DNA of 14,290 nucleotides, from IMG/VR virus record IMGVR_UViG_2534682108_000014, positions 1 to 14,290 of that record; one strand, given 5' to 3'. The position numbers and the translations under genes were made by a program. The notes below the pieces were generated by a model that worked only from the letters and a program-made list of their open reading frames with translations, made no database searches and was not told the origin of the DNA. This stretch comes from a virus. Taxonomy: Duplodnaviria > Heunggongvirae > Uroviricota > Caudoviricetes. Shown one piece after another: positions 2,471 through 14,290 of the stretch; the first letter of the stretch is position 1, and each line of letters starts with the position of its first letter.

Positions 2471-2677
2471 TCAACTCACAAAACACCACGCCATTTTTGC
2501 TACAGCGACAGGCGCAACACCGATAATCACCCACATGAGAATGCTACCGAAAAGCACACCCGCCAGGTCTTTACCTTCGCCTACCAACCGGACAAAACAG
2601 ACAGCAACCACAATGAACGTCGCCACCATCCACAGAGCACCGAGAAGCCTCAATGCAGAGAAAATTAACTCAACCAC
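2471..2677 (-). CDS. Small hydrophobic protein, two predicted transmembrane helices (68 aa, GTG start)
   Basis: MVELIFSALRLLGALWMVATFIVVAVCFVRLVGEGKDLAGVLFGSILMWVIIGVAPVAVAKMAWCFVS has two about 20-residue hydrophobic stretches split by a GEGKD turn. GTG start preceded by GGGGGAGAG 6 nt upstream. Lies directly downstream of an intrinsic terminator. Confidence 0.55.
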   Translation of the reverse strand: MVELIFSALRLLGALWMVATFIVVAVCFVRLVGEGKDLAGVLFGSILMWVIIGVAPVAVAKMAWCFVS

Positions 2678-2692
2678 GATTTACTCTCCCCC

Positions 2693-2724
2693 AAATAAAA
2701 AGGCCTGCGATTACCAGCAGGCCT
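2693..2724 (-). terminator. Rho-independent terminator on the minus strand between the 89-aa gene and the small membrane-protein gene
   Basis: Minus-strand reading AGGCCTGC-TGGTAATC-GCAGGCCT followed by TTTTTATTT: 8-bp GC-rich stem, 8-nt loop, U-tract. The plus-strand reading lacks a downstream T-run. Confidence 0.6.
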
Positions 2725-2749
2725 GTTATTAACTCAGAGATGTAGATGG

Positions 2750-3019
2750 TCATTGCTTCATCTCCCTTTCCATTTCATCAATGTCAACGTCATCAGGAAG
2801 ATGGGAGCAATACGCCGCTATACCATGATGATTTATCTCATACCCTTTGAACGTTACCATCTGATGCGTAATCTCAACTTCGTTCAGGAATCCGCCATCG
2901 CATAACTGCCTGGCTATTTTCGATTTGGTCTGGATTATTGGTAGTGCCTGTTCTTTCAAAGCGTATGATATTTGTGCATCCCATGCCTTTTCGAGAATGG
3001 CTAATTGTTTTTTATTCAT
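2750..3019 (-). CDS. Hypothetical protein (89 aa)
   Basis: ATG at 3019 with strong RBS AAGGAGG 6 nt upstream. Start overlaps the helicase stop by 1 nt (TGATG). No family recognised. Confidence 0.6.
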   Translation of the reverse strand: MNKKQLAILEKAWDAQISYALKEQALPIIQTKSKIARQLCDGGFLNEVEITHQMVTFKGYEINHHGIAAYCSHLPDDVDIDEMEREMKQ

Positions 3020-4455
3020 CAGAATCCTCCTTTCTTCTTGGACTGCGGTTCCTCGCGTTCACGGCGGCGCATTTCAGCAGACTGTTGGTCTGTGTCATAA
3101 ATAGCGCCATTTGCCTGAATGCAATACACCGTGCCGGTATTGCCATGACGATTGAGGCGAAGGATTAGTTCGGTTTCACCAGGTGGAACACTGTCATCAA
3201 AAGCACCTTCACGATGGATCCCCACCCAATAATCGCAATCCTGTTCAATCTGCCCTGTATCTCGTGAGTCACTTGGTAATGGGCGTTTATTGGTTCGGCT
3301 TTCCAGTGCGCGGTTAAGCTGTGTCAGAAGCACAACAACGCAATCAAGCTCTTTGGCAAGGTTCTTCAGTCCTTTGGTGATCATGCCGTAAGCAAGGTCG
3401 TTGCGATCGGCCTTTTCAGCGGTCATTAGTGTCAGGTAATCGACCAGAATCATGCCAACACATCCTTTTTCTCGCTTGATTCGACGGCTTTCGCTGACGA
3501 TTTGAGCCAGAGATAATCCCGGCGTGTCGTCAATGTAAAGCAGGTCGATTTCACTCAAGCGATTGGCTGTTTCGATCGCCCTGTTGAAGTCACCATCGTA
3601 ATCACCCTGATAGCCGTCATCAGCGTCATTTGTCGCCGGAAGGTAAAAAATATTCGGGTTAACACCTGACTTCTGTCCTACCAGTTTTTCCAGTATCTGG
3701 TCACCGGGCATTTCAAGGCTGAACATCAGAGCGGGCTTTTTCTCATGCACTGCGCAGTTGATTGCCATCTGGCTGTATAGCGTCGTTTTCCCCATCTTAG
3801 GGCGAGCGCCAATGACAAACAGAGAGCCTTTCACCAGACCTTTCGGTGACAGCATCCTGTCCAGCGATGGGATCCCTGTGCTCATTCCTCGTTGTTCGCC
3901 TGACGGGTCAAATCGCTTCTCAAGGTCGCTAACCCAGTCTTCCATGACCTCACCAAATGAGCGAAGGCCGCGACGCGATCCGGTTTTTGCATGGTCTGTC
4001 AGTTGCGTGAAAATCGCCTGAATAGCTTCGTACTTCTGCGTTGCAGTCATTCCGTTGCGGGAATAGAGCAATTCCGTCGCTTCAGTCATGCGGTTGATGG
4101 CGTAGCGTTCCATTGCGGTTTCACGAACCTGCATTGCATAGGCAACGATGTTTGCTGCGCTTGGCGTGTTCTTTGCGATCTCAGCGATATAAGCAAAACC
4201 GCCAACAGACACCGTTAACGATTTACGCTCCAGTTCATCGAAAAGCGTCAGGCCATCTACTGGCTTTTGCTCACGGTGCATTCTGGTTATTTCTTCGAAA
4301 ATGATTTTGTGTGGTCGGCTGTAAAATGAATCAGGCTTCAGCATCGCCAGGACTTTCTGGACGCGCTCACTGCTGTCATCATCCAGAAGCAATCCACCAA
4401 TCACCGCCTGCTCTGCCTCGATGCTATGGGGCGGCGCATAAAAATTATCGGTCAT
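3019..4455 (-). CDS. Replicative DNA helicase, DnaB family (phage P22 gene 12-like), about 478 aa
   Basis: Walker A GARPKMGKTT, Walker B-like ILVDYLTLM, and DnaB-type N-terminal SIEAEQAVIGGLLLD. ATG at 4455 is preceded by GAGGGTG; the track start at 4470 is a GTG extension. Confidence 0.93.
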   Translation of the reverse strand: MTDNFYAPPHSIEAEQAVIGGLLLDDDSSERVQKVLAMLKPDSFYSRPHKIIFEEITRMHREQKPVDGLTLFDELERKSLTVSVGGFAYIAEIAKNTPSAANIVAYAMQVRETAMERYAINRMTEATELLYSRNGMTATQKYEAIQAIFTQLTDHAKTGSRRGLRSFGEVMEDWVSDLEKRFDPSGEQRGMSTGIPSLDRMLSPKGLVKGSLFVIGARPKMGKTTLYSQMAINCAVHEKKPALMFSLEMPGDQILEKLVGQKSGVNPNIFYLPATNDADDGYQGDYDGDFNRAIETANRLSEIDLLYIDDTPGLSLAQIVSESRRIKREKGCVGMILVDYLTLMTAEKADRNDLAYGMITKGLKNLAKELDCVVVLLTQLNRALESRTNKRPLPSDSRDTGQIEQDCDYWVGIHREGAFDDSVPPGETELILRLNRHGNTGTVYCIQANGAIYDTDQQSAEMRRREREEPQSKKKGGF

Positions 4456-5335
4456 CGTGTTCACCCTCACGAACTTTCAGGTAGGTATTATCGTTAAGCA
4501 GGAAATCAAATCCCTTTTTGTGCCAGACGGTTCCGCGTTGATGGTTTGGACGCTCTTCGAACATCCATCGGCAATTTTCGCCTACGTAGCTCAAATAATT
4601 TCTCCAGTCCTGCATCGTGAACCCATGCCCGTCAAGCTGGCGGGTTATCACTCCGGCTTTGCGCCAGAACGTTCGGATCTGGTTTTTACGCTTGTCATTC
4701 AGTGCGCGGATTTTTGGCGCTTCAGGAAGGATTTCGTGGTAAGCATCGACAACATCCTGACAGCTAACGGAAGGTTTTTTCTTGTCAGACTTTTTGTCTG
4801 CTGCGGTACTCTCTAATACGTCAGTATTAGAGATATTATTTATATTATTGTTTATGGACAACCGTTGGACAACCGTTGGACAATCTCCGCTGAGAGCCGC
4901 GCCATTACTGGTGTTTGCGTTGGGCAACCGTTGGACAACCGTTGGACAATTTTTTGCCTGAAAATCGTCATATTTAACGATTGTAAACAGGCTAAATTTC
5001 TTCCCCATCGAGCAAATATTAAGCATACCTTTCGACTCAAAAGTCCGTAATAAGCTCCGAACTTTGTTGTCGGGGATGAATGTTTCTCTGACCAGCGACG
5101 GGCGTCCAGTTATCATCTGACCGCGATCAACAGTTATCGGCCCGATATCCGTATTGACGACAGTAGATTCGTGATTAGCCTTGAGGATTAAGTGAAGCCA
5201 AAGATGTACTGCCTGAGAGTCCTTATAGAGCCTGCTGTCCATAAACTGGCGGTGTATAGAGACATACCCCATACTGGATGCCTCCTGATGTTGTACAGGG
5301 TTATGCCTGTAATCAGCTAACTTAACGACGCCCAT
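4445..5335 (-). CDS. Replication initiation protein, lambda O-like (P22 gene 18-like), 296 aa, containing the origin
   Basis: Sits immediately upstream of the DnaB-type helicase; RBS AGGAGTG before ATG 5335. The coding sequence carries ori-type iterons, translated as the repeated peptide CPTVVQRL. Family assignment is by organisation plus recollection of O/gp18 proteins. Confidence 0.85.
   Translation of the reverse strand: MGVVKLADYRHNPVQHQEASSMGYVSIHRQFMDSRLYKDSQAVHLWLHLILKANHESTVVNTDIGPITVDRGQMITGRPSLVRETFIPDNKVRSLLRTFESKGMLNICSMGKKFSLFTIVKYDDFQAKNCPTVVQRLPNANTSNGAALSGDCPTVVQRLSINNNINNISNTDVLESTAADKKSDKKKPSVSCQDVVDAYHEILPEAPKIRALNDKRKNQIRTFWRKAGVITRQLDGHGFTMQDWRNYLSYVGENCRWMFEERPNHQRGTVWHKKGFDFLLNDNTYLKVREGEHDDR
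4815..4950. repeat. Replication origin: AT-rich tract (4815-4852) plus six approximately 11-bp iterons GGACAACCGTT in two clusters (4855-4887 and 4922-4950) inside the O-like gene
   Basis: Direct reading: ggacaaccgtt ggacaaccgtt ggacaatctcc, a 34-bp spacer, then gggcaaccgtt ggacaaccgtt ggacaattttt. Adjacent attagagatattatttatattattgtttat is AT-rich. Layout (iterons then AT-rich, in the O reading direction) mirrors lambda ori. Confidence 0.8.
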
Positions 5336-6170: not shown

Positions 6171-6821
6171 ATGAAAACTCAATTGATGGGAGAGCGCATT
6201 CGCGCTCGGAGAAAAGAACTCAAGATCAGGCAGGCCGCACTTGGAAAGATGGTCGGCGTGTCTAATGTTGCCATATCTCAGTGGGAACGCTCTGAGACAG
6301 AGCCAAATGGAGAGAATCTTCTCGCCCTGGCTAATGCGTTGAAGTGTTCCCCTGACTATCTGATGAAAGGAGAGGAAAGTCTTTCAAACATTGCCTATCA
6401 CAGTAGGCATGATCCAAGAGGGTCATACCCTCTGATTAGCTGGGTGAGCGCAGGATGCTGGATGGAAGCTGTAGAACCATATCATAAGCGTGCAATAGAT
6501 AACTGGTACGATACAACCGTAGACTGTTCAGAAGATTCGTTTTGGTTGGACGTGAAGGGAGACTCAATGACGGCTCCGGCCGGTCTCAGTATCCCTGAAG
6601 GAATGATAATACTCGTCGATCCTGAAGTAGAGCCGCGTAACGGGAAACTGGTAGTTGCAAAGCTCGAAGGAGAAAACGAGGCAACTTTCAAGAAGTTAGT
6701 TATTGATGCAGGCAGGAAGTTTCTAAAACCACTTAACCCACAATATCCGATGATCGAGATCAACGGAAACTGCAAAATCATCGGCGTAGTTGTCGATGCA
6801 AAACTAGCAAACCTTCCATAA
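6171..6821 (+). CDS. c2: Prophage repressor, P22 C2-type (216 aa), LexA-like autocleavable
   Basis: MKTQLMGERIRARRKELKIRQAALGKMVGVSNVAISQWERSETEPNGENLLALANAL... matches P22 C2 near-identically from memory and has the same length. N-terminal HTH, Ala-Gly cleavage region, and C-terminal S24-type GDSM serine with a downstream lysine. Confidence 0.96.
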   Translation: MKTQLMGERIRARRKELKIRQAALGKMVGVSNVAISQWERSETEPNGENLLALANALKCSPDYLMKGEESLSNIAYHSRHDPRGSYPLISWVSAGCWMEAVEPYHKRAIDNWYDTTVDCSEDSFWLDVKGDSMTAPAGLSIPEGMIILVDPEVEPRNGKLVVAKLEGENEATFKKLVIDAGRKFLKPLNPQYPMIEINGNCKIIGVVVDAKLANLP

Positions 6822-6846
6822 GGGGGCATTCGCCCCTTTTTTTTAT
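6822..6846 (+). terminator. Rho-independent terminator downstream of c2
   Basis: GGGGC-ATTC-GCCCC followed by TTTTTTTT, starting 1 nt after the c2 stop codon. Confidence 0.8.
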
Positions 6847-6887
6847 TTCCTTTAAAAATCAAAGCCAAACTTAAGTTACGAAAGAAA

Positions 6888-6940
6888 ATTTAAGTTTTCT
6901 TCAAAAATACTCTTGACCATTAATTAAAGAGATCTTAAAT
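6888..6940. promoter_or_regulatory. OL/PL region: P22-type operator at 6923-6940, weaker site at 6888-6905, and PL promoter (plus strand)
   Basis: ATTAAAGagatCTTAAAT (6923-6940) is a perfect fit to the operator pattern; ATTTAAGttttCTTCAAA (6888-6905) has one mismatch. PL reads -35 TTGACC (6913-6918) and -10 TTAAAT (6935-6940) with 16-bp spacing, the -10 lying inside the operator. Confidence 0.65.
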
Positions 6941-6986
6941 TTAAGCCATCAGCAGGACGCTGGTAGCCAAACGGAACAGATTGGCA

Positions 6987-7027
6987 GGCTCTTTAACATT
7001 GATGGGATTGTCCCGCCGAAATGCGGG
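6987..7027 (+). promoter_or_regulatory. nutL: boxA (6987-6998) plus boxB hairpin (7012-7027) in the PL leader
   Basis: GGCTCTTTAACA, a 13-nt spacer, then CCCGCCGAAATGCGGG. The boxB is identical to the nutR one on the other strand, and the boxA core GCTCTTTAACA is shared. Confidence 0.62.
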
Positions 7028-7339
7028 AACCAAAGAGTAGTTGGCTTTGGGGTGACGTGAAGTGCAGCTGCACGACGGCAACCGGAAGATAAGCACCCGG
7101 CGCGTCACCGCCAAAGTCAATTCCATAGGCGAAATGCAGCCGCCAAACACAGCCAATGCTGCACATGCAACAGGAGGATTTATGTGAATGCATAACTTCA
7201 AAACCGAGGTTAATTAAATCTCTCGATCCGAGCATTGACCTATTAGGTGGCGAGATGCTCTTTCTGCCCCTCAGTTCGAGGGGCCAGAAACCACTTTGCA
7301 ATCACTATCAATTCCAAAGTTGTTTCATCGGAGGTCAAC

Positions 7340-7612
7340 ATGACAGTAGTCATTACATATCTGGCTGACGATAACGCCAGAAATCGCCGCAGAGCACGCA
7401 GACAGGCTCAACGTGAACAGGCAATGCAAGAGCAGCGACTGACGCGAAAAATTGCGCTAAAGCTCTCTGGTTGCGTCAGAGCAGATAAAGCAGCATCACT
7501 CGGAAGCCTTCGCTGTAAGGAAGAAGATGAACGCAGTGGAAGTATTTGCCTGCCAAACGTAGCCATTTACGCGGCAGGATACCGGAAATCAAAACAACTG
7601 ACGGCGAGGTAA
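7340..7612 (+). CDS. 24: N-like transcription antiterminator (P22 gene 24-like), 90 aa
   Basis: From ATG 7340 (RBS GGAGG): MTVVITYLADDNARNRRRARRQAQREQ... with an N-terminal arginine-rich motif, and a C-terminus LPNVAIYAAGYRKSKQLTAR resembling P22 gp24 as I recall it. Lies downstream of PL/nutL. The track start at 7247 is an upstream extension. Confidence 0.85.
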   Translation: MTVVITYLADDNARNRRRARRQAQREQAMQEQRLTRKIALKLSGCVRADKAASLGSLRCKEEDERSGSICLPNVAIYAAGYRKSKQLTAR

Positions 7613-7615
7613 GTG

Positions 7616-7840
7616 ATGAATCAGACATACATTCCATCATGCTTGAGAAATCTGCCAAAGCAGAAAGCAAAGCCCCGCAAGCAAGCCATAAAGGACGCTA
7701 AGGCAGAGGTTATTGATCAAGCAATACAATTGCTCAGGGAGGAGTTAAGAAGTGGCAAGCTCGAAGGAATGATGATGCCATATCAGCGCGGATATCTATC
7801 GGCGATTAGTAAGTTGGAAGTATTGAAGAGTGAATTATGA
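7616..7840 (+). CDS. Hypothetical protein (74 aa), lysine-rich N-terminus
   Basis: ATG at 7616 begins 4 nt after the N stop, with GAGG 7 nt upstream. Same strand as the PL operon. No family recognised. Confidence 0.55.
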   Translation: MNQTYIPSCLRNLPKQKAKPRKQAIKDAKAEVIDQAIQLLREELRSGKLEGMMMPYQRGYLSAISKLEVLKSEL

Positions 7841-7902
7841 ACTATCTGGAATTTCCGGATGGTTCATTGTTTTGGCAGCAAACCACTTATTTGAGGTGAT
7901 AT

Positions 7903-8154
7903 ATGGAATTTCATGAAAGTGCGATTTGTGATTTTCGCGCTAACGCAAATTCAGTAAAACAACAGCCAATTGCAGTTCTTTTTAAAACAATGGGTGCGTG
8001 GGCTGTTTTATGCTTCGCCGCTGACGACACTGACGCAAGAATGGCAATAGGCCAAGAGATGGAGATGGATCCGACAAACGATGAATTCATAATTTATGGC
8101 GCTCCATCTAATTACTTACTTGATACCTGCAACATTTACAACAAGGCTGCCTGA
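7903..8154 (+). CDS. Hypothetical protein (83 aa)
   Basis: ATG at 7903 preceded by GAGGTGATAT. Acidic, cysteine-containing, no recognisable motif. Confidence 0.55.
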   Translation: MEFHESAICDFRANANSVKQQPIAVLFKTMGAWAVLCFAADDTDARMAIGQEMEMDPTNDEFIIYGAPSNYLLDTCNIYNKAA

Positions 8155-8213
8155 TGGTGGTCTTTATTTTTTAGCCGTAAATAATTTCATGCTTATTACA
8201 ATCAAGGTGATAT

Positions 8214-8579
8214 ATGGAAGAACAAGCAAACAAGATTCTCGTAGAACTACTGCAAAAAGCCAGCAATGGAATAGACGCGGCTGTTTCATTTAGCCAGGCA
8301 CAGATTCCTGATGTCATCCATCAGCTTTTGATGTGGCACGCCGTATCATCAGCTGGAATTCAGGCTATCTGTGTATTGGTGATTATAGCGTGTGTTTATC
8401 TGATGATTTTTGCATGGAATAAAGGAGATGATGCAGATATTGTTCTTTCATCACTACTTGTCACATCAGGAATAGCGATTACTTCTATTGTTGTTTTCTT
8501 CAATTATTTCGACTGGCTGAAAATTTGGCTTGCTCCAAAACTTTACCTTATCGAATATGCAGCATCATTGGTTAAGTAA
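8214..8579 (+). CDS. Hypothetical membrane protein (121 aa) with two predicted transmembrane helices
   Basis: ATG at 8214 preceded by AAGGTGATAT. Hydrophobic segments AGIQAICVLVIIACVYLMIFAW and LLVTSGIAITSIVVFFNYF follow an amphipathic N-terminal region. Confidence 0.6.
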   Translation: MEEQANKILVELLQKASNGIDAAVSFSQAQIPDVIHQLLMWHAVSSAGIQAICVLVIIACVYLMIFAWNKGDDADIVLSSLLVTSGIAITSIVVFFNYFDWLKIWLAPKLYLIEYAASLVK

Positions 8580-8638
8580 TTTCAGGACGCATAGTCGGCC
8601 TTTATTTTTGGCACAAACAACAGAATAAACACTGCACT

Positions 8639-8666
8639 GTGTATTCATTCCAACGAGTGAATACAC
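8639..8666 (+). other. Long hairpin / inverted repeat (12-bp arms, 4-nt loop) in the intergenic region upstream of the c3-like gene
   Basis: GTGTATTCATTC-caac-GAGTGAATACAC gives 12 pairs counting one G-U in RNA (one mismatch as DNA). No U-tract follows, so it is not an intrinsic terminator. Confidence 0.5.
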
Positions 8667-8728
8667 GGAGCAATGTCGCTCGTAACTAAACAGGAGCCGA
8701 CTTGTTCTGATTATTGGAAATCTTCTTT

Positions 8729-8754
8729 GCCCTCCAGTGTGAGGGCCTTTTTAT
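8729..8754 (+). terminator. Rho-independent terminator within the PL operon, upstream of the c3-like gene
   Basis: GCCCTC-cagtgt-GAGGGC followed by CTTTTTTAT on the plus strand. Confidence 0.6.
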
Positions 8755-8818
8755 ATGCATACCAATAACGCTTCACTCGAGGCGTTTTCGTTATGCAATC
8801 AAATATAAGGAGTTACCC

Positions 8819-8953
8819 ATGATGCACTTTCAGTTCGCGGGTAGCGGCGTCATGTCCGCTTTCTACCCGCACGAATCTGAATTATCACGCCGAGTTAAAC
8901 AATTAATAAGAGCAGCAAAGAAACAACTGGAGGCGTTATGCGCAATGAAATAG
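8819..8953 (+). CDS. c3: CIII-like small protein (44 aa), putative FtsH-inhibitor that would stabilise CII
   Basis: From ATG 8819 (RBS AAGGAG, 5-nt spacer): MMHFQFAGSGVMSAFYPHESELSRRVKQLIRAAKKQLEALCAMK. This shares the lambda CIII pattern AG..V...P.ES.L.R...L.....K.L as I recall it. The track ORF starting at 8714 spans the terminator and is rejected. Confidence 0.5.
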   Translation: MMHFQFAGSGVMSAFYPHESELSRRVKQLIRAAKKQLEALCAMK

Positions 8954-9090
8954 CCATCAATCACCAGATGCTTCGTGCGGCACAAAACAAAGCAGTAATA
9001 GCCAGATTTATTGGTGATTCCAAAATGTGGCTTGAAGCAAATAAAGCGATGAAATCAGCTATCAACCTTCCGTGGTATCGCAGGAAATGA
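8938..9090 (+). CDS. Small hypothetical protein (50 aa), in the kil/arf position of P22-like phages
   Basis: ATG 8938 with GGAGG 4 nt upstream, overlapping the c3-like 3' end. Translates MRNEIAINHQMLRAAQNKAVIARFIGDSKMWLEANKAMKSAINLPWYRRK. Below the ORF-track cutoff; positional inference only. Confidence 0.4.
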   Translation: MRNEIAINHQMLRAAQNKAVIARFIGDSKMWLEANKAMKSAINLPWYRRK

Positions 9091-9245
9091 GTTTTACAGA
9101 TAACTGGTCAGACGAAGAATTCATTCGTCAGATGAAAGAATTAATCGGTAACGAAGGAGATATTCATGTCACTTGCAACCACAGTGAAGGAGAGCAAGTT
9201 ACAGAGACGCATGTACACGCAGAAAGCTCTCTGGTATCGCCATAA
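9087..9245 (+). CDS. Small acidic hypothetical protein (52 aa)
   Basis: ATG 9087 overlaps the preceding stop (ATGA), suggesting coupling; the RBS is poor. Translates MSFTDNWSDEEFIRQMKELIGNEGDIHVTCNHSEGEQVTETHVHAESSLVSP. Confidence 0.35.
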   Translation: MSFTDNWSDEEFIRQMKELIGNEGDIHVTCNHSEGEQVTETHVHAESSLVSP

Positions 9246-9346
9246 TGGCGACCGCGAAGGAATGCGGGTATGCCTTAATTTGTCCCGAGTCGAAGTATTA
9301 AATCAGCGTTATTTCCTTGGGCCTTGTCCATTCTGAGAACAAACAT

Positions 9347-9952
9347 ATGAGCAAAGAATTTTACGCAAGACTGGCTGCTATTCAGGAGAATCTGAACGCG
9401 CCAAAAAATCAGTACAACTCATTCGGCAAATATAAATACAGAAGCTGCGAAGATATTCTTGAAGGCGTTAAGCCGTTACTGAATGGTCTGTTTTTATCAA
9501 TCAGCGATGAAGTTGTGTTGATTGGTGATCGGTATTACGTGAAAGCCACGGCAACTATTACCGATGGCGAAAACAGTCATACGGCAACCGCTCTTGCACG
9601 AGAGGAAGAAAGCAAGAAAGGAATGGATTCTGCACAAGTTACGGGAGCCACAAGCTCTTATGCACGCAAGTATTGCCTCAATGGTTTGTTCGGCATTGAT
9701 GATGCGAAAGATGCAGATACCGACGAGCATAAACATCAGCAGAACGCAGCAGCAAAGCAATCAAAACCATCACCTACACCTGAACAGGTTCTAAAAGCAT
9801 TCACTGACGCAGCATTGCAGAAAAACACCGTGGAAGAGCTTAAACAGGCGTTCGCCAAAGCGTGGAAGATGCTCGAAGGCACACCGGAGCAGCACAAAGC
9901 GCAGGACGTTTACAACATCAGACGAGACGAATTAGAAGGAGCTGCTGCTTAA
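9347..9952 (+). CDS. erf: Erf, essential recombination function protein (single-strand annealing protein), 201 aa
   Basis: From ATG 9347: MSKEFYARLAAIQENLNAPKNQYNSFGKYKYRSCEDILEGVKPLLNGLFLSISDEVVLIGDRYYVKATATITDGENSH... matches P22 Erf closely from memory. The track start at 9317 is a TTG extension. Confidence 0.9.
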   Translation: MSKEFYARLAAIQENLNAPKNQYNSFGKYKYRSCEDILEGVKPLLNGLFLSISDEVVLIGDRYYVKATATITDGENSHTATALAREEESKKGMDSAQVTGATSSYARKYCLNGLFGIDDAKDADTDEHKHQQNAAAKQSKPSPTPEQVLKAFTDAALQKNTVEELKQAFAKAWKMLEGTPEQHKAQDVYNIRRDELEGAAA

Positions 9953-10335
9953 TGGCACATTCGATTACTGTAAGACTAAACAAGCCCGCAAGAGAGTTTC
10001 AGGCCGGGGAAAATATCGGATTCAACATCCGTGCTGGCGTTCAGTATTACGATCGCCAGACAAAAAAGAAAGAATGGACAAACTACAGCGCCGTTGTATT
10101 TGCCAAGCCTGGAGCGCAAGCTGATTACTACCGTAGTGTTCTTGTTGAAGGTGGCATTGTAGAAATTACCGGAGAAAACATCAGGGTTGATGTTTATCAG
10201 GGGCAAAATGGTCAATCAATCACTCTTGAATTACTGAATGCAAAGATTGGATTTGCAACTTCAGGAAACAGCCAACAGCAGCAAAGTAGCAATCATCAAA
10301 ATCATCCTGAATACGACGATTCAATTCCCTTCTAA
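9952..10335 (+). CDS. Single-stranded DNA-binding protein-like (short SSB with acidic C-terminal tail), 127 aa
   Basis: ATG 9952 overlaps the erf stop (TAATG). The C-terminus ...QQQQSSNHQNHPEYDDSIPF resembles the SSB signature tail DDDIPF after a Q-rich linker, and the N-terminal region has an SSB-like pattern (W.NYSAVVFAK ... VEGG.VEITG). The track start at 9862 lies inside erf. Confidence 0.6.
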   Translation: MAHSITVRLNKPAREFQAGENIGFNIRAGVQYYDRQTKKKEWTNYSAVVFAKPGAQADYYRSVLVEGGIVEITGENIRVDVYQGQNGQSITLELLNAKIGFATSGNSQQQQSSNHQNHPEYDDSIPF

Positions 10336-10358
10336 AGTAGCAACATAAGGATTCCATT

Positions 10359-10652
10359 ATGCCAGCGCCTCTGTATGGTGCGGATGACCCGCGCCGCTGT
10401 TCCGGCAATTCCGTATCGGAGGTGCTGGATAAATTCAGAAAAAACTACGACCGGATAATGTCTCTACCGCAGGAAACGAAAGAGGAAAAGGAATTTCGCC
10501 ACTGTATATGGCTTGCAGAGAAAGAAGAACGCGAGCGAATTTACCAGACATCAATCCGCCCATTCCGCAAAGCCACATATACCCACTTCCCTGAAATTGA
10601 CCCGCGCCTGCGTAATTACCGCTCACGCTATGGCGCTATCAGTAATGACTGA
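10359..10652 (+). CDS. Hypothetical protein (97 aa); by position could be an anti-RecBCD abc-type gene, but not recognised
   Basis: ATG 10359 with AAGGA 7 nt upstream. No motif recognised; the functional guess is positional only (downstream of erf). Confidence 0.55.
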
Positions 10653-10662
10653 GGAATTTACC

Positions 10663-10827
10663 ATGAGAGGACTTGCATACAATCCCGGCATTCTTCCGGC
10701 AGAAATGATTATTCGACAACGCGTAAAGCCAATGCCATCGAGAGAGGAATTGCTTAAGAGAAAGAGTTTCGGTTCTGTTAATGACAACAAATATCTGAAT
10801 GCGATGTGGCGGAGTGGGAAGAAATGA
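10663..10827 (+). CDS. Small hypothetical protein (54 aa)
   Basis: ATG 10663 with GAGGAA 7 nt upstream: [54 protein letters not shown]. The track ORF starting at 10513 is a long upstream extension overlapping the previous gene in another frame. Confidence 0.45.
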
Positions 10828-11216
10828 AACAAATGACACTAATTGAGATGGATGGATTTCTGAAAGGTAAATGCATTCCACGAGATTTAAAGGTTAACGA
10901 AACAAACGCTGAATATCTGGTGCGTAAATTTGCTGAAGCGGAGGCCAAGTGCGCGGCGCTGGCTGCGGAGAATGCGGCGCTGAAGAAGTTCTGCAAAGAC
11001 GCTGCATTCGATGCCGATTACGAAGCAGAGCTAGGTATGGAGCGTGGTGGATTCAGTGATGCACTTAACGATATCGAAACCACAGCCACCGACGCTTTCT
11101 TGGCTGAAGTACGGGCGCAGGGCGTGGAGATGTTTGCTGACCATCTGTTGTGCCCAAACCTTGATGACACTATCCGTGACTTTGCTGCCCAGCTTCGCAA
11201 AGGAGTGCAGTCATGA
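10824..11216 (+). CDS. Hypothetical protein (130 aa), alanine-rich helical segment
   Basis: ATG 10824 overlaps the upstream stop (ATGA). Contains [20 protein letters not shown], suggestive of a helical or coiled-coil segment. Confidence 0.55.
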
Positions 11217-11575
11217 AAAGAGAGCCGAAAAAAACTGTGAAGATTAAGCGTTTCCGCTACTCACTTGATTGGTTCACCGTTGATGACGTTGAGTGCGAAG
11301 TCGGCAATGGATTCAGCTACGAAATGCAGTTTCGTCTCGGGGCATGGTATCTGATGGGGAAATATTACGATTACAAGGCTGAGCAGTGGTACGAGGATTA
11401 TAGAAAATCATTCCAGCTGGAATGCCCAGCGGAAGCCGTTATTGCTCTTGGTAATAGCCTGACGAAGTTCAGCAGACTTCACGACTGTGACCACCTGACT
11501 GAACACCTCGCTAAACTGCTGAAAGGCGTTGCTTCGCGCATTGCTATTAGTGAAGCAGAAGGAGGCAACCAGTGA
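11213..11575 (+). CDS. Hypothetical protein (120 aa)
   Basis: ATG 11213 overlaps the upstream stop (ATGA), with AAAGGAG 7 nt upstream. No motif recognised. Confidence 0.6.
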   Translation: MKREPKKTVKIKRFRYSLDWFTVDDVECEVGNGFSYEMQFRLGAWYLMGKYYDYKAEQWYEDYRKSFQLECPAEAVIALGNSLTKFSRLHDCDHLTEHLAKLLKGVASRIAISEAEGGNQ

Positions 11576-12180
11576 GCAAGATTGATTATCAAAAGCTTCG
11601 TGAAATCGCTGAAAAAACAAAAATTGCTGGTGAAGCACCTGTAATGCCTTTCGATCAGCGAATTAATGCGCTTAACGATTTTATGAAGCACTTTTCGCCA
11701 GATATCGCGCTGGCATTGTTGGATGAACGGGAAAGAAACCAGCAATACATCAAATCCCGCGACCAGGAGAACGAGGATATTGCGCTAACGGTAGGGAAGC
11801 TGCGCGTTGAGCTGGAAGGCAAAGACAGCAAAATAGCCAATCTTACCGCCGAACGCGATGCTCTTCGTGAAGGTGAGATGGGCGACGCTAGGCATAGCAA
11901 CACACGGGCCGCAGCTGATATCTACTTCCAACTGGTCGAGGAGTGCGAAATTCCTGCTGGCGGTTCTCTGGTCGAGTACGTTGACGATATGCGCGAGAAG
12001 CTGGAAGCCGCAGAGAAGCGCATTGCAGAACTGGAAGCGCGGGAAATACTGCTCCCGGAACGTAGCAGCATGCTTCATCGAACAGATTTTCACGATGATT
12101 ACCAAACGGTAATGGCATACAAAGTTTCTGAGGTCATCGATGCAATCCGCGCCGCTGGCATTCGCATCAAAGGAGAGTGA
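11572..12180 (+). CDS. Hypothetical coiled-coil protein (202 aa), ea-region type
   Basis: GTG 11572 overlaps the upstream stop (GTGA), preceded by strong GAAGGAGG. Central heptad-like region KLRVELEGKDSKIANLTAERDALREGE ... LEAAEKRIAELEARE. Confidence 0.6.
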   Translation: MSKIDYQKLREIAEKTKIAGEAPVMPFDQRINALNDFMKHFSPDIALALLDERERNQQYIKSRDQENEDIALTVGKLRVELEGKDSKIANLTAERDALREGEMGDARHSNTRAAADIYFQLVEECEIPAGGSLVEYVDDMREKLEAAEKRIAELEAREILLPERSSMLHRTDFHDDYQTVMAYKVSEVIDAIRAAGIRIKGE

Positions 12181-12181
12181 G

Positions 12182-12373
12182 ATGAATGGACAAATATCAA
12201 TTGTTCGACCTGGAGCATGTGACGATTGCGAGATACGAATGATTATTCGTCTGGCAATGGGGAAAACAATAACTGCTCTCATTACTCCAGAAAATCTCGC
12301 ATTGGCATTAACCGGAAAGTCAGACCTGCCAGTAGAGCTAAAGCTGCGAAATGTTGAGATTAAGGTGAAATAG
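12182..12373 (+). CDS. Small hypothetical protein (63 aa)
   Basis: ATG 12182 sits 1 nt after the upstream stop, with AAGGAGAG upstream: MNGQISIVRPGACDDCEIRMIIRLAMGK... The track start at 12140 lies inside the previous gene. Confidence 0.5.
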   Translation: MNGQISIVRPGACDDCEIRMIIRLAMGKTITALITPENLALALTGKSDLPVELKLRNVEIKVK

Positions 12374-12374
12374 C

Positions 12375-12971
12375 ATGAATTCTATTACCAAAGAACGTAT
12401 TGAATTGTTCATTAAAGATCCGCTTGAAAACGGGCTTACTCGTGGCGAACAAATGGAACTGGCACGAATTGCACTGGCATCACTGGAACGCGAACAGATT
12501 CGCCACGAGCATGCCAAATGGTCTGACTCCACATTTGGCTGCGTTGGCCCCATTGGTCCGCTGAAACATCTCTCAAAAGAGGCTCTGGAAGCCGCAGCCG
12601 AACCAGACGATCTTAGCGAGTGGGCTGATATGCAGTTTCTGTTGTGGGATGCACAGCGCCGTGCTGGCATCAGCGATGCTGAAATTACCGCTGCTATGGA
12701 AGATAAATTGAAGATCAACATGGAGCGCCAGTGGCCTGAGCCAAAAGATGGTGAGCCTCGCTTGCACATTAAAGAACCCGGCAACTATCCGGCAACTCCG
12801 GATGGTTGGGTTATGGTGCCGAAGGAGTTAACCCCGGAAATGATGAGAGCCGTTCAGATTAGAAGTGAGCTTGGAGGGTATGCCACTTCCAATCTATCTG
12901 GTGCATACAATATGTTTTCTGAGTTCTGGAATGTTGCTGTCTCAGCTGCGCCTAAGGTGGATGATTTATGA
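12375..12971 (+). CDS. Hypothetical protein (198 aa)
   Basis: ATG 12375 sits 1 nt after the upstream stop, with AAGGTGA 6 nt upstream. No motif recognised. Confidence 0.6.
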   Translation: MNSITKERIELFIKDPLENGLTRGEQMELARIALASLEREQIRHEHAKWSDSTFGCVGPIGPLKHLSKEALEAAAEPDDLSEWADMQFLLWDAQRRAGISDAEITAAMEDKLKINMERQWPEPKDGEPRLHIKEPGNYPATPDGWVMVPKELTPEMMRAVQIRSELGGYATSNLSGAYNMFSEFWNVAVSAAPKVDDL

Positions 12972-13270
12972 ATCTATATCGCTGCCCATTCTGTGGTTCC
13001 ACTGTGCTTAACATCGGATACTCATTCAATATCAGAGGGAAAATGCGCTATGTGTCATGCAAATGTGGTGCCCAAGGACCAGAAAAACGAACTAAATCTG
13101 AAGCGATTTCTTCATGGAATAGTCGAATGAAAGTATGGGTTTATGATCCAGAAACCATATTAAACGCTGAAGAGCGCAGGAGAACGGAAGTCTATATTCA
13201 TAACCTTAATGAAGATGGATTTACACCAGTGCTTGTAAAGGCTACTCCGCAGGAGGTTAACCATGGCTAA
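12968..13270 (+). CDS. Lar-family restriction alleviation protein-like (100 aa; Lar-like N-terminal zinc-ribbon domain plus C-terminal extension)
   Basis: N-terminus MNLYRCPFCGSTVL...YVSCKCGAQGP...SEAISSWNSR shows the CPFCG...C.CG...A...WN.R pattern I associate with the Lar (Rac prophage) family. ATG overlaps the upstream stop (ATGA); RBS AAGGTGG. Confidence 0.6.
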   Translation: MNLYRCPFCGSTVLNIGYSFNIRGKMRYVSCKCGAQGPEKRTKSEAISSWNSRMKVWVYDPETILNAEERRRTEVYIHNLNEDGFTPVLVKATPQEVNHG

Positions 13271-13547
13271 CCTACAACTTGCCGTCAAAGGTGAATACTT
13301 CGATGCCATGATTCGCAGAGAGAAAACGGAAGAGTATCGCCTGTGTAATGACTATTGGAATAAGCGCCTCGTTAACCGTAAGTATGACCGCCTGATTATC
13401 ACAAAGGGATATCCGAAGCGCGACGACTTCAGTCGCAGAATTGATGTTCCGTATGACGGATATGAAATCAAGACAATCACACATCCCCACTTCGGCGATA
13501 AACCGGTAAAGGTGTTCGCGATAAAGGTGAATATCGGCAATGAATAA
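13263..13547 (+). CDS. ASCH/PUA-like domain protein (94 aa), tentative
   Basis: N-terminus LQLAVKGEYFDAMIRREKTEEYR resembles the ASCH-domain opening pattern (I.KPEYFD.I..G.KT.E.R). ATG 13263 preceded by AGGAGG. Confidence 0.45.
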   Translation: MANLQLAVKGEYFDAMIRREKTEEYRLCNDYWNKRLVNRKYDRLIITKGYPKRDDFSRRIDVPYDGYEIKTITHPHFGDKPVKVFAIKVNIGNE

Positions 13548-13551
13548 CAAT

Positions 13552-13578
13552 CCTCGCACTCGCGGGGATTTCTTTTAT
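13552..13578 (+). terminator. Possible weak intrinsic terminator after the ASCH-like gene
   Basis: CCTCGC-actc-GCGGGG (6-bp stem including one G-U) followed by the U-rich ATTTCTTTTAT. Confidence 0.3.
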
Positions 13579-13619
13579 CTGAACTCGCTACGGCGGGTTT
13601 TGTTTTATGGAGACAAGAA

Positions 13620-13964
13620 ATGTCAGATTTGGCTATGAAGGTTTTGAAATGGCAATCGACTGGCGATGTCGGCATCAGTAGCGCAACTCTTGCCTCAATC
13701 GCATGTGGACTGAAAAAGAATATCTATGGTCATAGCTTCGGTGCTCCACATGACGCAGCCGATTTCAGACGATGCGTTGCACTTGTTGAGCAGATTCCAG
13801 AAATCAGAGATTCATTCGACAAGGTTGCAAAGCGCGTTCCGGCATTCAAAGGAATCCTCAACGAATGGGATTCACTCGTTGCTCTGTTGAAGTCTGAAAT
13901 GAAGATACACGGAAACAAAGCACCAGAGACTTACAGAAGAATTAGCGAGTTACGCAAGGACTAA
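13620..13964 (+). CDS. Hypothetical protein (114 aa)
   Basis: ATG 13620 with GGAGA 6 nt upstream; intact ORF on the operon strand. No motif recognised. Confidence 0.6.
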   Translation: MSDLAMKVLKWQSTGDVGISSATLASIACGLKKNIYGHSFGAPHDAADFRRCVALVEQIPEIRDSFDKVAKRVPAFKGILNEWDSLVALLKSEMKIHGNKAPETYRRISELRKD

Positions 13965-14023
13965 CCACAGCCTCACACTCGATGAGGCCAGTTCATTTCT
14001 CAAGATATCCAGACCTACCATCG

Positions 14024-14047
14024 CCGCATCAATGCGGTTTTTTTATT
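14024..14047 (+). terminator. Rho-independent terminator upstream of the xis-like gene
   Basis: CCGCA-tcaa-TGCGG (5-bp stem, tetraloop) followed by a run of nine T. Confidence 0.45.
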
Positions 14048-14089
14048 GCCTGATTTGCAGGTTCGATTCCCTATTCGGAGATAGCACTC

Positions 14090-14290
14090 ATGCAACACGA
14101 ACTACAGCCTGATTCACTGGTTGATTTGAAATTCATCATGGCCGATACTGGCTTCGGTAAAACCTTCATCTATGACCGGATTAAGTCCGGGGACCTGCCT
14201 AAAGCCAAAGTTATCCACGGGCGAGCAAGATGGTTATATCGTGACCATTGTGAATTCAAAAATAAGCTCTTAAGCCGCGCCAATGGGTAA
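14090..14290 (+). CDS. AlpA/Xis-family small DNA-binding protein (putative excisionase), 66 aa
   Basis: LVDLKFIMADTGFGKTFIYDRIKSGDLPKAKVIHGRARWLYRDHCEF fits the AlpA/excisionase pattern (helix-turn-helix then conserved R.W). Sits at the distal end of the PL operon, where xis-int are expected. Stop codon is the last triplet of the window. Confidence 0.6.
   Translation: MQHELQPDSLVDLKFIMADTGFGKTFIYDRIKSGDLPKAKVIHGRARWLYRDHCEFKNKLLSRANG

Follow-up and report, generated by a model that had tools for sequence, protein, structure and literature searches.

The five consecutive genes at 10663-12373 very probably make up an 'ea' accessory stretch of the ordinary, non-essential kind in a P22/HK620-like lambdoid prophage, and in all likelihood they form a promoter-distal, dispensable part of its N-antiterminated early-left operon. 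As judged from the gene content of sequenced relatives, the genes of this block assort independently and occur in different combinations in different phages. The analysis corrects an over-reading of the stop/start overlaps that join the genes, since such overlaps are the default packing in phage early operons and are unusable for inferring complexes. All five genes are real, and four of them match HMM families at E <= 2e-19. The remaining one encodes a 120 amino acid protein whose family is rare, under selection, unnamed and devoid of a fold match, and it is the only unexplored item in the block.

Operon setting and gene families

The block is located on the + strand of the window (the whole 14,290-nucleotide stretch of DNA that was analysed), downstream of cI, N, cIII, kil, erf and abc2 of the early-left operon and upstream of the gene for an excisionase that is 100% identical to K-12 TorI. 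The block and hkaI-hkaH-hkaG-hkaF of HK620 and HK633 are syntenic. Both the operon position and this synteny agree with the first-pass annotation, which had placed the genes in the ea-type region of a lambdoid prophage. The host of the prophage is most likely E. coli, and its most likely integration site is the KplE1/CPS-53 site adjoining dsdC. The features of the segment are as follows.

10359-10652, + strand: abc2 anti-RecBCD gene (PF11043, E 6e-64; phrog_656), which marks the start of the accessory segment
10663-10827, + strand: DUF2737 / HkaI-like gene, 54 aa (PF10930; phrog_1117, E 2.5e-38)
10824-11216, + strand: HkaH-like gene, 130 aa (phrog_614, E 2e-53; partial matches to phrog_583, 492 and 368)
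11213-11575, + strand: unnamed 120-aa gene ('orphan' cassette) of a small enterobacterial phage family
11572-12180, + strand: Ead/Ea22-family gene, 202 aa, GTG start (PF13935)
12182-12373, + strand: HkaF-like gene, 63 aa (phrog_1222, E 9e-41, residues 1-63)
12375-12971, + strand: continuation of the chain, gene with a DUF550 dATP/dGTP pyrophosphohydrolase domain (PF04447, E 4e-42)
12968-13270, + strand: continuation of the chain, Lar-like restriction-alleviation gene (PF14354, E 8.5e-9; TIGR03655, E 3.4e-16), joined by an ATGA overlap
13263-13547, + strand: continuation of the chain, phrog_625 gene, joined by an 8-nt overlap
13549-13600, + strand: two terminator-like hairpins (at 13549 and 13581) that close the terminator-free stretch

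The last convincing terminator-like site on the + strand ahead of the hairpins at 13549 is found at 8767-8786. The sole match between these positions, at 11428, has a minimal 5-pair stem and a tail that lacks a clean run of T residues. No promoter-like site was found within the block, and the ~4.7-kb stretch from cIII to 13547, which contains the five genes, includes neither a convincing terminator nor a promoter-like site. A scan of the entire window with Rfam revealed no RNA family, and a search for repeats over 10300-13700 yielded only short repeats at chance level. Transcription of the five genes as one unit probably begins early after infection or induction and would be shut off in the lysogen, and each product would most likely function on its own as an early modulator of host or phage development.

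The first-pass annotation had regarded none of the products as recognisable. Searches for remote homology and structure bear this out for the 120-aa protein, which matches no curated family and no known fold, but they place the other four in the named DUF2737, HkaH-like, Ead/Ea22 and HkaF-like families. The 54-aa protein matches PF10930 with 100.4 bits (cut-off 25) over residues 1-52 of 54, and its gene is present in 252 of 50,697 phage records. The HkaF-like protein matches its profile over the full length, and its gene is found in 176 phage records, including those of virulent Dhillonvirus phages. Searches of PDB with the single sequences of the 54-, 63-, 130- and 202-aa proteins gave no match, and no functional study was found in the literature on P22 ead/eae/eaa and DUF2737.

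The 130-aa protein consists of an N-terminal module that is shared with K-12 YfdS, a short coiled segment and a distinct C-terminal domain. It has no match in Pfam or NCBIfam, and a profile search of PDB sequences with the alignment of the HkaH-like family (A4) found nothing below E 0.03. YfdS itself was considered as an identity for this protein and rejected, because only the N-terminal module is common to the two: the identity of 79% (E 8e-19) extends over only 34 aa, the BLAST alignment stops at residue 36, and Pfam reports no DUF551 match. The protein is therefore filed as HkaH-like (phrog_614).

YfdS is nevertheless the basis for one alternative, in which the genes are lysogenic-conversion or defence 'morons' that the prophage expresses for the benefit of the host. 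A connection with peroxide tolerance has been described for this K-12 relative, and yfdQRS/T in multicopy inhibits DnaA-dependent initiation (PMC4776307). However, the resemblance to YfdS is confined to those 34 N-terminal residues, there are no significant PADLOC matches, and the block, which is not preceded by a terminator and contains no promoter-like site, lies deep in a repressor-controlled pL operon. We consider this alternative highly improbable. A defence system was likewise rejected as a candidate given that there is neither a PADLOC match nor an internal promoter; the only match to the PADLOC-DB defence models is a 14-bit one of the coiled-coil type, to PbeC.

There are more than 8000 relatives of the Ea22-like 202-aa protein, and one E. 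coli protein is 100% identical to it. PF13935 matches residues 2-155 with 71.1 bits (cut-off 27), which places the protein in the Ea22 family, a family with a known phenotype. BLAST aligns residues 1-88 with lambda Ea22 at 58% identity (E 5e-25) and stops at residue 88, such that the N-terminal region and the start of the predicted coiled coil match whereas the distal part differs, although both proteins end in AGIRIKGE. AlphaFold2 (AF2) predicts helices at residues 43-101 (59 residues) and 133-157 (25 residues) in a model that is too uncertain to warrant a fold search (mean pLDDT 64, pTM 0.32), and heptad periodicity exceeds that of shuffled sequences with p about 0.03 by a crude heptad score. 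The C-terminal domain of the lambda type, which has been solved by NMR, has no sequence match in the 202-aa protein, for which no PDB chain was matched at E <= 0.9.

Ead relatives generally have conserved ends combined with alternative inserts and C-terminal domains, a form of sub-genic mosaicism, and the Ead/Ea22 family is known for variation in its C-terminal domains (PMC10834534). Lambda Ea22 is tetrameric and has a published pro-lysogenic, developmental phenotype (PMC7093339, PMC10834534). Lambda phages deleted for ea22 are induced faster and yield more progeny (PMC7093339). By analogy, the 202-aa protein probably works as lambda Ea22 does, with a C-terminal part unrelated to that of lambda. 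It may form a coiled-coil oligomer that presents a variable C-terminal domain and biases the decision toward lysogeny.

Gene junctions and independent assortment of the genes

The junctions between the genes are as the first-pass annotation had given them (ATGA at 10824 and 11213, GTGA at 11572, 1-nt gaps at 12182 and 12375), and all can be read exactly from the sequence. The DUF2737 and HkaH-like genes share an ATGA, as do the HkaH-like and 120-aa genes, and the 120-aa gene overlaps the GTG start of the Ea22-like gene in a GTGA. The HkaF-like gene begins 1 nt past the TGA at 12178-12180, and the DUF550 gene begins 1 nt past the TAG at 12371-12373. The tight packing continues unbroken from 10663 to 13547, beyond 12373, where the chain had been taken to end.

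From these junctions it had been concluded that the overlaps imply stoichiometric co-expression, and one possibility is that the genes encode subunits of a single host-takeover machine that are made in fixed proportions via translational coupling. All five junctions are overlaps or 1-nt gaps, the 120-aa gene has 4-nt overlaps at both ends wherever its neighbours have been called, the HkaH-like, 120-aa and Ea22-like genes usually occur together, and predicted coiled-coil segments in two of the products could mediate assembly. However, overlaps or gaps of <=3 nt are present at 11 of the 19 junctions of the same operon. Tight junctions elsewhere in the operon include N with the next gene, cIII/kil, kil/arf, erf/ssb, DUF550/Lar and Lar/phrog_625, and several of these (e.g. 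kil/arf, erf/ssb and DUF550/Lar) show the same geometry between unrelated neighbours.

Moreover, every gene is preceded by a strong Shine-Dalgarno sequence of its own, of the AAGGAG type, which is located 6-8 nt before the start codon and within the 3' end of the upstream gene. For the DUF2737 gene this element is GAGGA, positioned 7 nt upstream of the ATG. Of the features of a coupled operon that encodes a stoichiometric complex, the stop/start overlaps are present, but the genes possess independent ribosome binding sites and are not co-inherited. True translational coupling may still occur at the 4-nt overlaps, as coupling and an independent Shine-Dalgarno sequence are compatible.

Inheritance of the genes also argues against a multiprotein machine. 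The 120-aa gene is absent from HK620 and HK633, and the DUF2737 and HkaF-like genes occur without the others in hundreds of phages, including virulent Dhillonvirus. Individual genes are present in between 5 and 261 of the 50,697 phage records (252 / 261 / 5 / 176). To look for the whole block, a 2.7-kb query (window 10300-13000) was required to match over at least 80% of its length in one place. No such record was found among the 493 matching phage records (best 52%) or the 5426 complete E. coli genomes (best 72%).

Parts of the block are found in other settings. In L018 the same chain (130-120-202-63-198-100-94-114) is located behind entirely different recombination genes, and in three other loci (L023, L024 and L026) the group of HkaH-like, 120-aa and Ea22-like genes resides in the nin region after O-DnaB. 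With overlaps that recur throughout this operon, a separate Shine-Dalgarno sequence for each gene and independent inheritance of the genes, the claim of stoichiometric co-expression is not supported, and a single machine is in our judgement unlikely. We favour the interpretation that the stop/start overlaps would reflect genome compaction and conserved boundary sequences, and would therefore carry no signal of fixed-ratio production of a complex.

The 120-aa gene and its conserved joints

There are 23 clusters of length-conserved homologues of the 120-aa protein, and dN/dS values of 0.09-0.14 indicate purifying selection. A profile search of PDB sequences with the family alignment (A2) found nothing below E 0.03, and when 28 members of this alignment, which represents the wider family, were scanned against Pfam and PHROG, no common family emerged. 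One distant relative (P0052) is fused to an N-terminal Lar-like zinc ribbon. A profile search of genome contigs with a further alignment (A1) confirmed no locus.

In the contexts that were read, a gene of the HkaH-like kind (with the C-terminal domain or at least the conserved tail) is present at most two genes upstream of the 120-aa gene, and an Ea22-like gene (with a Pfam match or the RIAELEAR...AGI..GE tail) at most two genes downstream. The exception on both sides is L004, and short contigs such as L008 are not assessable. These near-constant neighbours could indicate functional linkage rather than only the shared ancestry of one insertion. A bolder proposal is that the 120-aa protein represents a structurally new early-phage family and forms a three-part module with the HkaH-like and Ea22-like proteins, wherein the latter would be coiled-coil oligomeric scaffolds and the 120-aa protein an effector that binds a host factor, e.g. 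a defence or replication protein. We rate this proposal as a long shot.

The 120-aa gene is flanked by two joints.

11183-11216, + strand: first conserved joint, formed by the last 30 nt of the HkaH-like gene (…gcccagcttcgcaaaggagtgcagtc) and ATGA; it holds the Shine-Dalgarno sequence and the stop/start overlap
11552-11575, + strand: second joint, gaaggaggcaacca followed by GTGA, leading into the Ea22-like gene; it holds the Shine-Dalgarno sequence and the stop/start overlap

Homology of the 120-aa gene to other loci starts abruptly about 30 nt before the ATG, even where the upstream gene is unrelated. At positions -30 to -1, 26-28 of 30 nt agree with those of L004 and L006-L010, whereas further upstream only about 5-12 of 30 match, as in unrelated sequence. 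The unrelated 276-aa upstream protein of L004 ends in the same 10-residue tail as the HkaH-like protein. The joint also has alternative occupants, as it leads directly to the Ea22-like gene in HK620 and HK633 and to the 120-aa gene in the window and in L003-L010. The second joint is nearly identical to the hkaH/hkaG joint of HK620 (aaaggaggcagcca followed by GTGA).

The joint sequence contains ...CAGCTTCGCAAAGGAG...

The 120-aa gene behaves as an exchangeable cassette at a conserved joint, in line with the model that explains lambdoid mosaicism by boundary (linker) sequences (Susskind and Botstein 1978; Clark et al. 2001 on HK620; both cited via PMC3233612). Phage recombinases might swap cassettes at such boundary sequences in a manner that keeps the downstream gene translatable. 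We infer use of the joint as a recombination site from sequence comparison; conservation of the 30 nt could instead stem from selection for the tail peptide that they encode or for the Shine-Dalgarno sequence. The locus offers a clean and datable case in which a cassette has been inserted at a Shine-Dalgarno/stop-start joint, and it could serve to examine whether recombination in the evolution of lambdoid phages really takes place at such joints.

Candidate functions and known relatives

Roles in host takeover or anti-defence are plausible given the neighbourhood, with abc2 upstream and a Lar-like gene downstream. A specific version holds that the block is a counter-defence island in which at least one of the five proteins inhibits a host anti-phage system, like the flanking abc2 and Lar-like genes. 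The position between an anti-RecBCD gene and a restriction-alleviation gene, the early expression expected from the operon position, the high turnover with cassette exchange, and the Lar-like zinc ribbon fusion in P0052 are all consistent with this idea. Furthermore, Silas et al. treated regions beside abc2 in P22-like phages as counter-defence-associated (bioRxiv 10.1101/2023.04.06.535777).

None of the five proteins resembles a characterised inhibitor in PDB sequence or profile searches, nor does the 120-aa model, the only one used for a fold search. The sole experimentally studied relative, Ea22, has a developmental rather than an anti-defence phenotype (PMC7093339), and neighbourhood is weak evidence in so mosaic a region. 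We therefore view a counter-defence island as possible but doubtful.

The closest named relatives of the block as a whole are the hkaI-hkaH-hkaG-hkaF genes of HK620 and HK633, which share its position after abc2, its gene order and its stop/start joints. Identities are 94-98% for the 54-aa DUF2737 protein, 94% for the HkaF-like protein (93.7% to HK620 HkaF), 71% for the Ea22-like protein and 46% for the HkaH-like protein (as measured against HK620 HkaH). The window differs from these phages in several respects: the additional 120-aa gene separates the HkaH-like gene from the Ea22-like one, the HkaH-like protein is shorter by 30 aa, the Ea22-like protein is without the N-proximal insert of roughly 70 residues found in HkaG, and the downstream gene encodes DUF550 rather than DUF551.

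The yfdS-yfdT region upstream of torI in K-12 CPS-53/KplE1 represents the same prophage lineage and attachment site, with an excisionase (TorI) that is 100% identical. YfdS resembles the HkaH-like protein over its N-terminal 34-46 residues (79%) but continues into a DUF551 domain, whereas the HkaH-like protein continues into a different C-terminal domain. There is no counterpart of YfdQ, YfdR or YfdT in the window.

With lambda Ea22, the 202-aa protein has in common the GTG start, a central region predicted to be helical or coiled, the AGIRIKGE tail, and a location within the pL operon that has the recombination genes on one side and xis on the other, although its residues from about 89 to 190 are unrelated to those of lambda. 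Finally, the first joint resembles the boundary-sequence model in that a short stretch at a gene boundary is conserved, the DNA on one side of it is unrelated, and the same joint has alternative occupants. It departs from the model by coinciding with a Shine-Dalgarno sequence and a stop/start overlap and by extending about 30 nt into the coding sequence upstream.

Composition and setting of the gene block

The window is a lambdoid immunity and early region, as indicated by its ORF listing and family scans, and contains the following features.

Minus strand: cro, cII, replication O, DnaB-type helicase, NinB and NinG
6171-6821, plus strand: cI-type repressor
After the repressor, plus strand: N-like antiterminator, cIII, kil, arf-like gene, erf and SSB-like gene
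10359-10652, plus strand: abc2, immediately before the block
10663-10827, plus strand: DUF2737/HkaI-like gene (PF10930, 100 bits; found in 252 of 50,697 phage records)
10824-11216, plus strand: HkaH-like gene (phrog_614)
11213-11575, plus strand: unnamed 120-aa gene with length-conserved homologues (58-99% identity)
11572-12180, plus strand: Ead/Ea22 family gene (PF13935, 71 bits)
12182-12373, plus strand: HkaF-like gene (phrog_1222; 94% identical to HK620 HkaF; 176 phage records)
After the block, plus strand, in order: DUF550 gene, Lar-like gene, two more small genes and excisionase (14090-14290; 100% identity with TorI from CPS-53/KplE1, a cryptic prophage of E. coli K-12)

Judged by sequence, all five ORFs of the block are genes, four by family match and the 120-aa one by its homologues and a dN/dS of 0.09-0.14 against five diverged copies. 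The first-pass annotation considered none of the products recognisable, which is wrong for four of the five, whose matches to Pfam or PHROG families have E values of 2e-19 or lower. Its placement of the block in the lambdoid 'ea' accessory region is right, as indicated by the gene map, the TorI-identical excisionase and synteny with HK620 and HK633. These are the nearest sequenced phages, and they carry hkaJ(abc2)-hkaI-hkaH-hkaG-hkaF-hkaE at the same position. An identical gene chain adjoins dsdC-dsdX in the draft genome locus L018, where it lies behind RecT-type recombination genes rather than the Erf-type genes of the window. Given this chain and the excisionase, integration of the prophage at the E. 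coli KplE1 attachment site is probable. Between N and cIII (7616-8579), where HK620 has a putative superinfection-exclusion gene, there are small genes of phrog_5305, phrog_2471 and phrog_3054, each near or directly before a terminator-like hairpin.

The HkaH-like protein has no match in Pfam or NCBIfam, and a longer relative carries the NCBI name 'YfdS family'. K-12 YfdS shares only the first ~36 residues (79% identity); after this N-terminal module YfdS continues into DUF551, whereas the window's protein continues into another motif domain and a conserved tail. There are HkaH-like matches in 261 phage records, only 83 of which reach at least 80% coverage, and in many the match is confined to one of the two modules, N-terminal or C-terminal. 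Over residues 1-88 the Ea22-like protein has 58% identity to its lambda namesake (E 5e-25); the two share a GTG start and a terminal AGIRIKGE but are unrelated in between. Its AF2 model has helices at 43-101 and 133-157 with low confidence, and a crude heptad score exceeds that of shuffles. In an alignment of its relatives, the ends and core are conserved while N-proximal inserts and C-terminal domains alternate. Virulent Dhillonvirus siphophages carry HkaF-like homologues (H81-H83, 65-67% identical), so this protein is not confined to temperate lambdoid phages. The 63-aa HkaF-like protein also weakly matches (E 4e-6) the C-terminal end of a PHROG family that bears the label DNA methyltransferase. 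As a whole, the block newly combines known ea-region families with one rare unnamed family.

Junctions and transcription

The junctions are as originally described: ATGA at 10824 and 11213, GTGA at 11572, and starts at 12182 and 12375 that each follow a 1-nt gap. However, the stoichiometric co-expression read from them is unsupported. Across the entire early-left operon, 11 of 19 junctions either overlap or have a gap of at most 3 nt, among them N and its following gene, cIII/kil, kil/arf (ATGA) and erf/ssb (TAATG). Downstream of the block, DUF550/Lar (ATGA) and Lar/phrog_625 (8-nt overlap) belong to these 11, and the chain is continuous from 10663 to 13547, past the claimed end. Overlaps also occur at several minus-strand junctions (2139/2142, 3019, 4445-4470). 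Every downstream start has its own AAGGAG-type Shine-Dalgarno sequence 6-8 nt upstream, so ribosomes can initiate independently and the overlaps do not entail synthesis in a fixed ratio. The tight geometry is no peculiarity of the block; lambdoid early operons are built this way by default.

Within this chain, a biochemical role can be suggested only for the DUF550 (dATP/dGTP pyrophosphohydrolase-domain) and Lar-like (restriction-alleviation) genes at 12375-13270, which overlap by ATGA at 12968. The DUF550 product begins with a leader of ~40 residues (MNSITKERIELFIK...ELARIALASLE) that HK620 HkaE, a DUF551 protein, also has.

Promoters and terminators were sought by consensus pattern scans. 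There are only two sigma-70 promoter-like sites in 6800-14290 (12.4 +/- 4.0 expected from shuffles), none of them inside the block, and 20 terminator-like sites (8.5 +/- 3.2 expected). Plus-strand hairpins follow cI and the genes after N and precede cIII, clustering near the small N-cIII genes (7837, 8143, 8729, 8767) and after 13547, with two at 13549 and 13581. Between 8786 and 13549 the scan gives just one match, a minimal stem of 5 pairs at 11428. These patterns suggest that the block would be transcribed within the antiterminated pL transcript, with its genes expressed soon after infection or induction and kept repressed in a lysogen. Given that the block lacks a promoter, lies deep inside a repressed operon and has no PADLOC match supporting such a role, it is unlikely to serve in defence or as a moron.

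The 120-aa gene as a candidate cassette

The 120-aa protein has no match in Pfam, PHROGs, NCBIfam or PADLOC. A collection of 5.8 billion proteins contains 23 clusters of its family and one of 1.84 billion contains 31 representatives, almost all of them 100-125 aa long. Only five phage records match, every one below 40% identity. At the DNA level the gene occurs in one of 5426 complete E. coli genomes, and the exact protein is present in many draft assemblies. Its AF2 model, a beta-sheet followed by helices, is of moderate quality (pLDDT 74 for the best of five, 42-55 for the rest), and a fold search found no significant structural neighbour. In P0052, a distant relative in the wider-family alignment, a Lar-like zinc-ribbon domain is fused N-terminally to the 120-aa domain. 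Three other relatives (P0031, P0041, P0027) have C-terminal extensions, and that of P0041 resembles another small gene of such regions. There is domain shuffling among the proteins of this region.

Loci were aligned at the ATG of this gene and compared with the window. Of the 30 nt that precede the ATG, 26-28 are identical, and the opening 120 nt of the gene have 25-30 identities per 30 nt, but the figure is about 5-12 of 30 farther upstream and 13-20 of 30 mid-gene. In locus L004, the product of the gene directly upstream (2474-3304) has 276 aa and no relation to the HkaH-like family, yet its ten C-terminal residues and the final 30 nt of its gene are those of the HkaH-like gene. By eye, this protein is possibly ParB-like. 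HK620 and HK633 lack the 120-aa gene, and there cagcttcgcaaaggaggcagcca followed by GTGAGCAAGATTGA links hkaH straight to the Ea22-like gene. The window has cagcttcgcaaaggagtgcagtc followed by ATGA at the entry to the 120-aa gene, and gaaggaggcaacca followed by GTGAGCAAGATTGA at the exit to the next gene. Given the abrupt upstream drop in identity, the L004 tail and the direct joint of HK620 and HK633, the 120-aa gene looks like a cassette set into an older joint of Shine-Dalgarno sequence and stop/start overlap.

The window's joints show what the boundary-sequence model predicts for lambdoid mosaicism (Susskind and Botstein 1978; Clark et al. 2001 for HK620; both as cited in PMC3233612). The joint may be conserved as a recombination site or because the next gene has to stay translatable. 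In locus L005 (4148-5004), a 78-aa gene lies between the HkaH-like and 120-aa genes, and both it and the HkaH-like gene end in GSQV and a stop codon, as if insertion had duplicated the joint tail.

Several observations speak against inheritance of the block as a unit, among them the absence of the 120-aa gene from HK620 and HK633 and the exchanged recombination genes of L018. No phage record or complete E. coli genome holds at least 80% of a 2.7-kb query (10300-13000) in one place (best coverage 52% and 72%, respectively), and prevalence differs fifty-fold among the genes. In several prophages, the HkaH-like/120-aa/Ea22-like group is in the nin region, 3' of the replication genes and outside the pL operon. 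Every context read has an HkaH-like C-terminal domain, or failing that the 10-residue tail, at most two genes 5' of the 120-aa gene. On the other side, at most two genes downstream, is an Ea22-like gene, called by Pfam match or a RIAELEAR...AGI..GE tail, with the exception of L004; some short contigs such as L008 are not assessable. This pattern points to some linkage and fits one ancestral insertion that spread along with its flanks, and a functional tie between the 120-aa gene and these flanks has a low probability. The sole item meriting bench work is the 120-aa family, with its possible link to the putative coiled-coil proteins on either side.

Comparison with characterised systems

For some of the genes, a part in counter-defence is a tentative, rather doubtful reading that the neighbourhood makes plausible: Abc2 is encoded upstream and a Lar-like protein downstream, and regions beside abc2 have been screened as counter-defence hotspots (bioRxiv 10.1101/2023.04.06.535777). 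Multicopy yfdQRS/T of K-12 inhibits DnaA-dependent initiation via YfdR (PMC4776307); the window lacks YfdR and has only the N-terminal module of YfdS. The sole experimental precedent among the block products is Ea22, a tetramer that favours lysogeny in lambda and Stx phage; its coiled coil is central, its C-terminal domain differs from phage to phage, and it has no known partner (PMC7093339; PMC10834534). The Ea22-like protein of the window has the conserved N-terminal half in common with it, and by analogy it most likely works like Ea22 with a different C-terminal domain.
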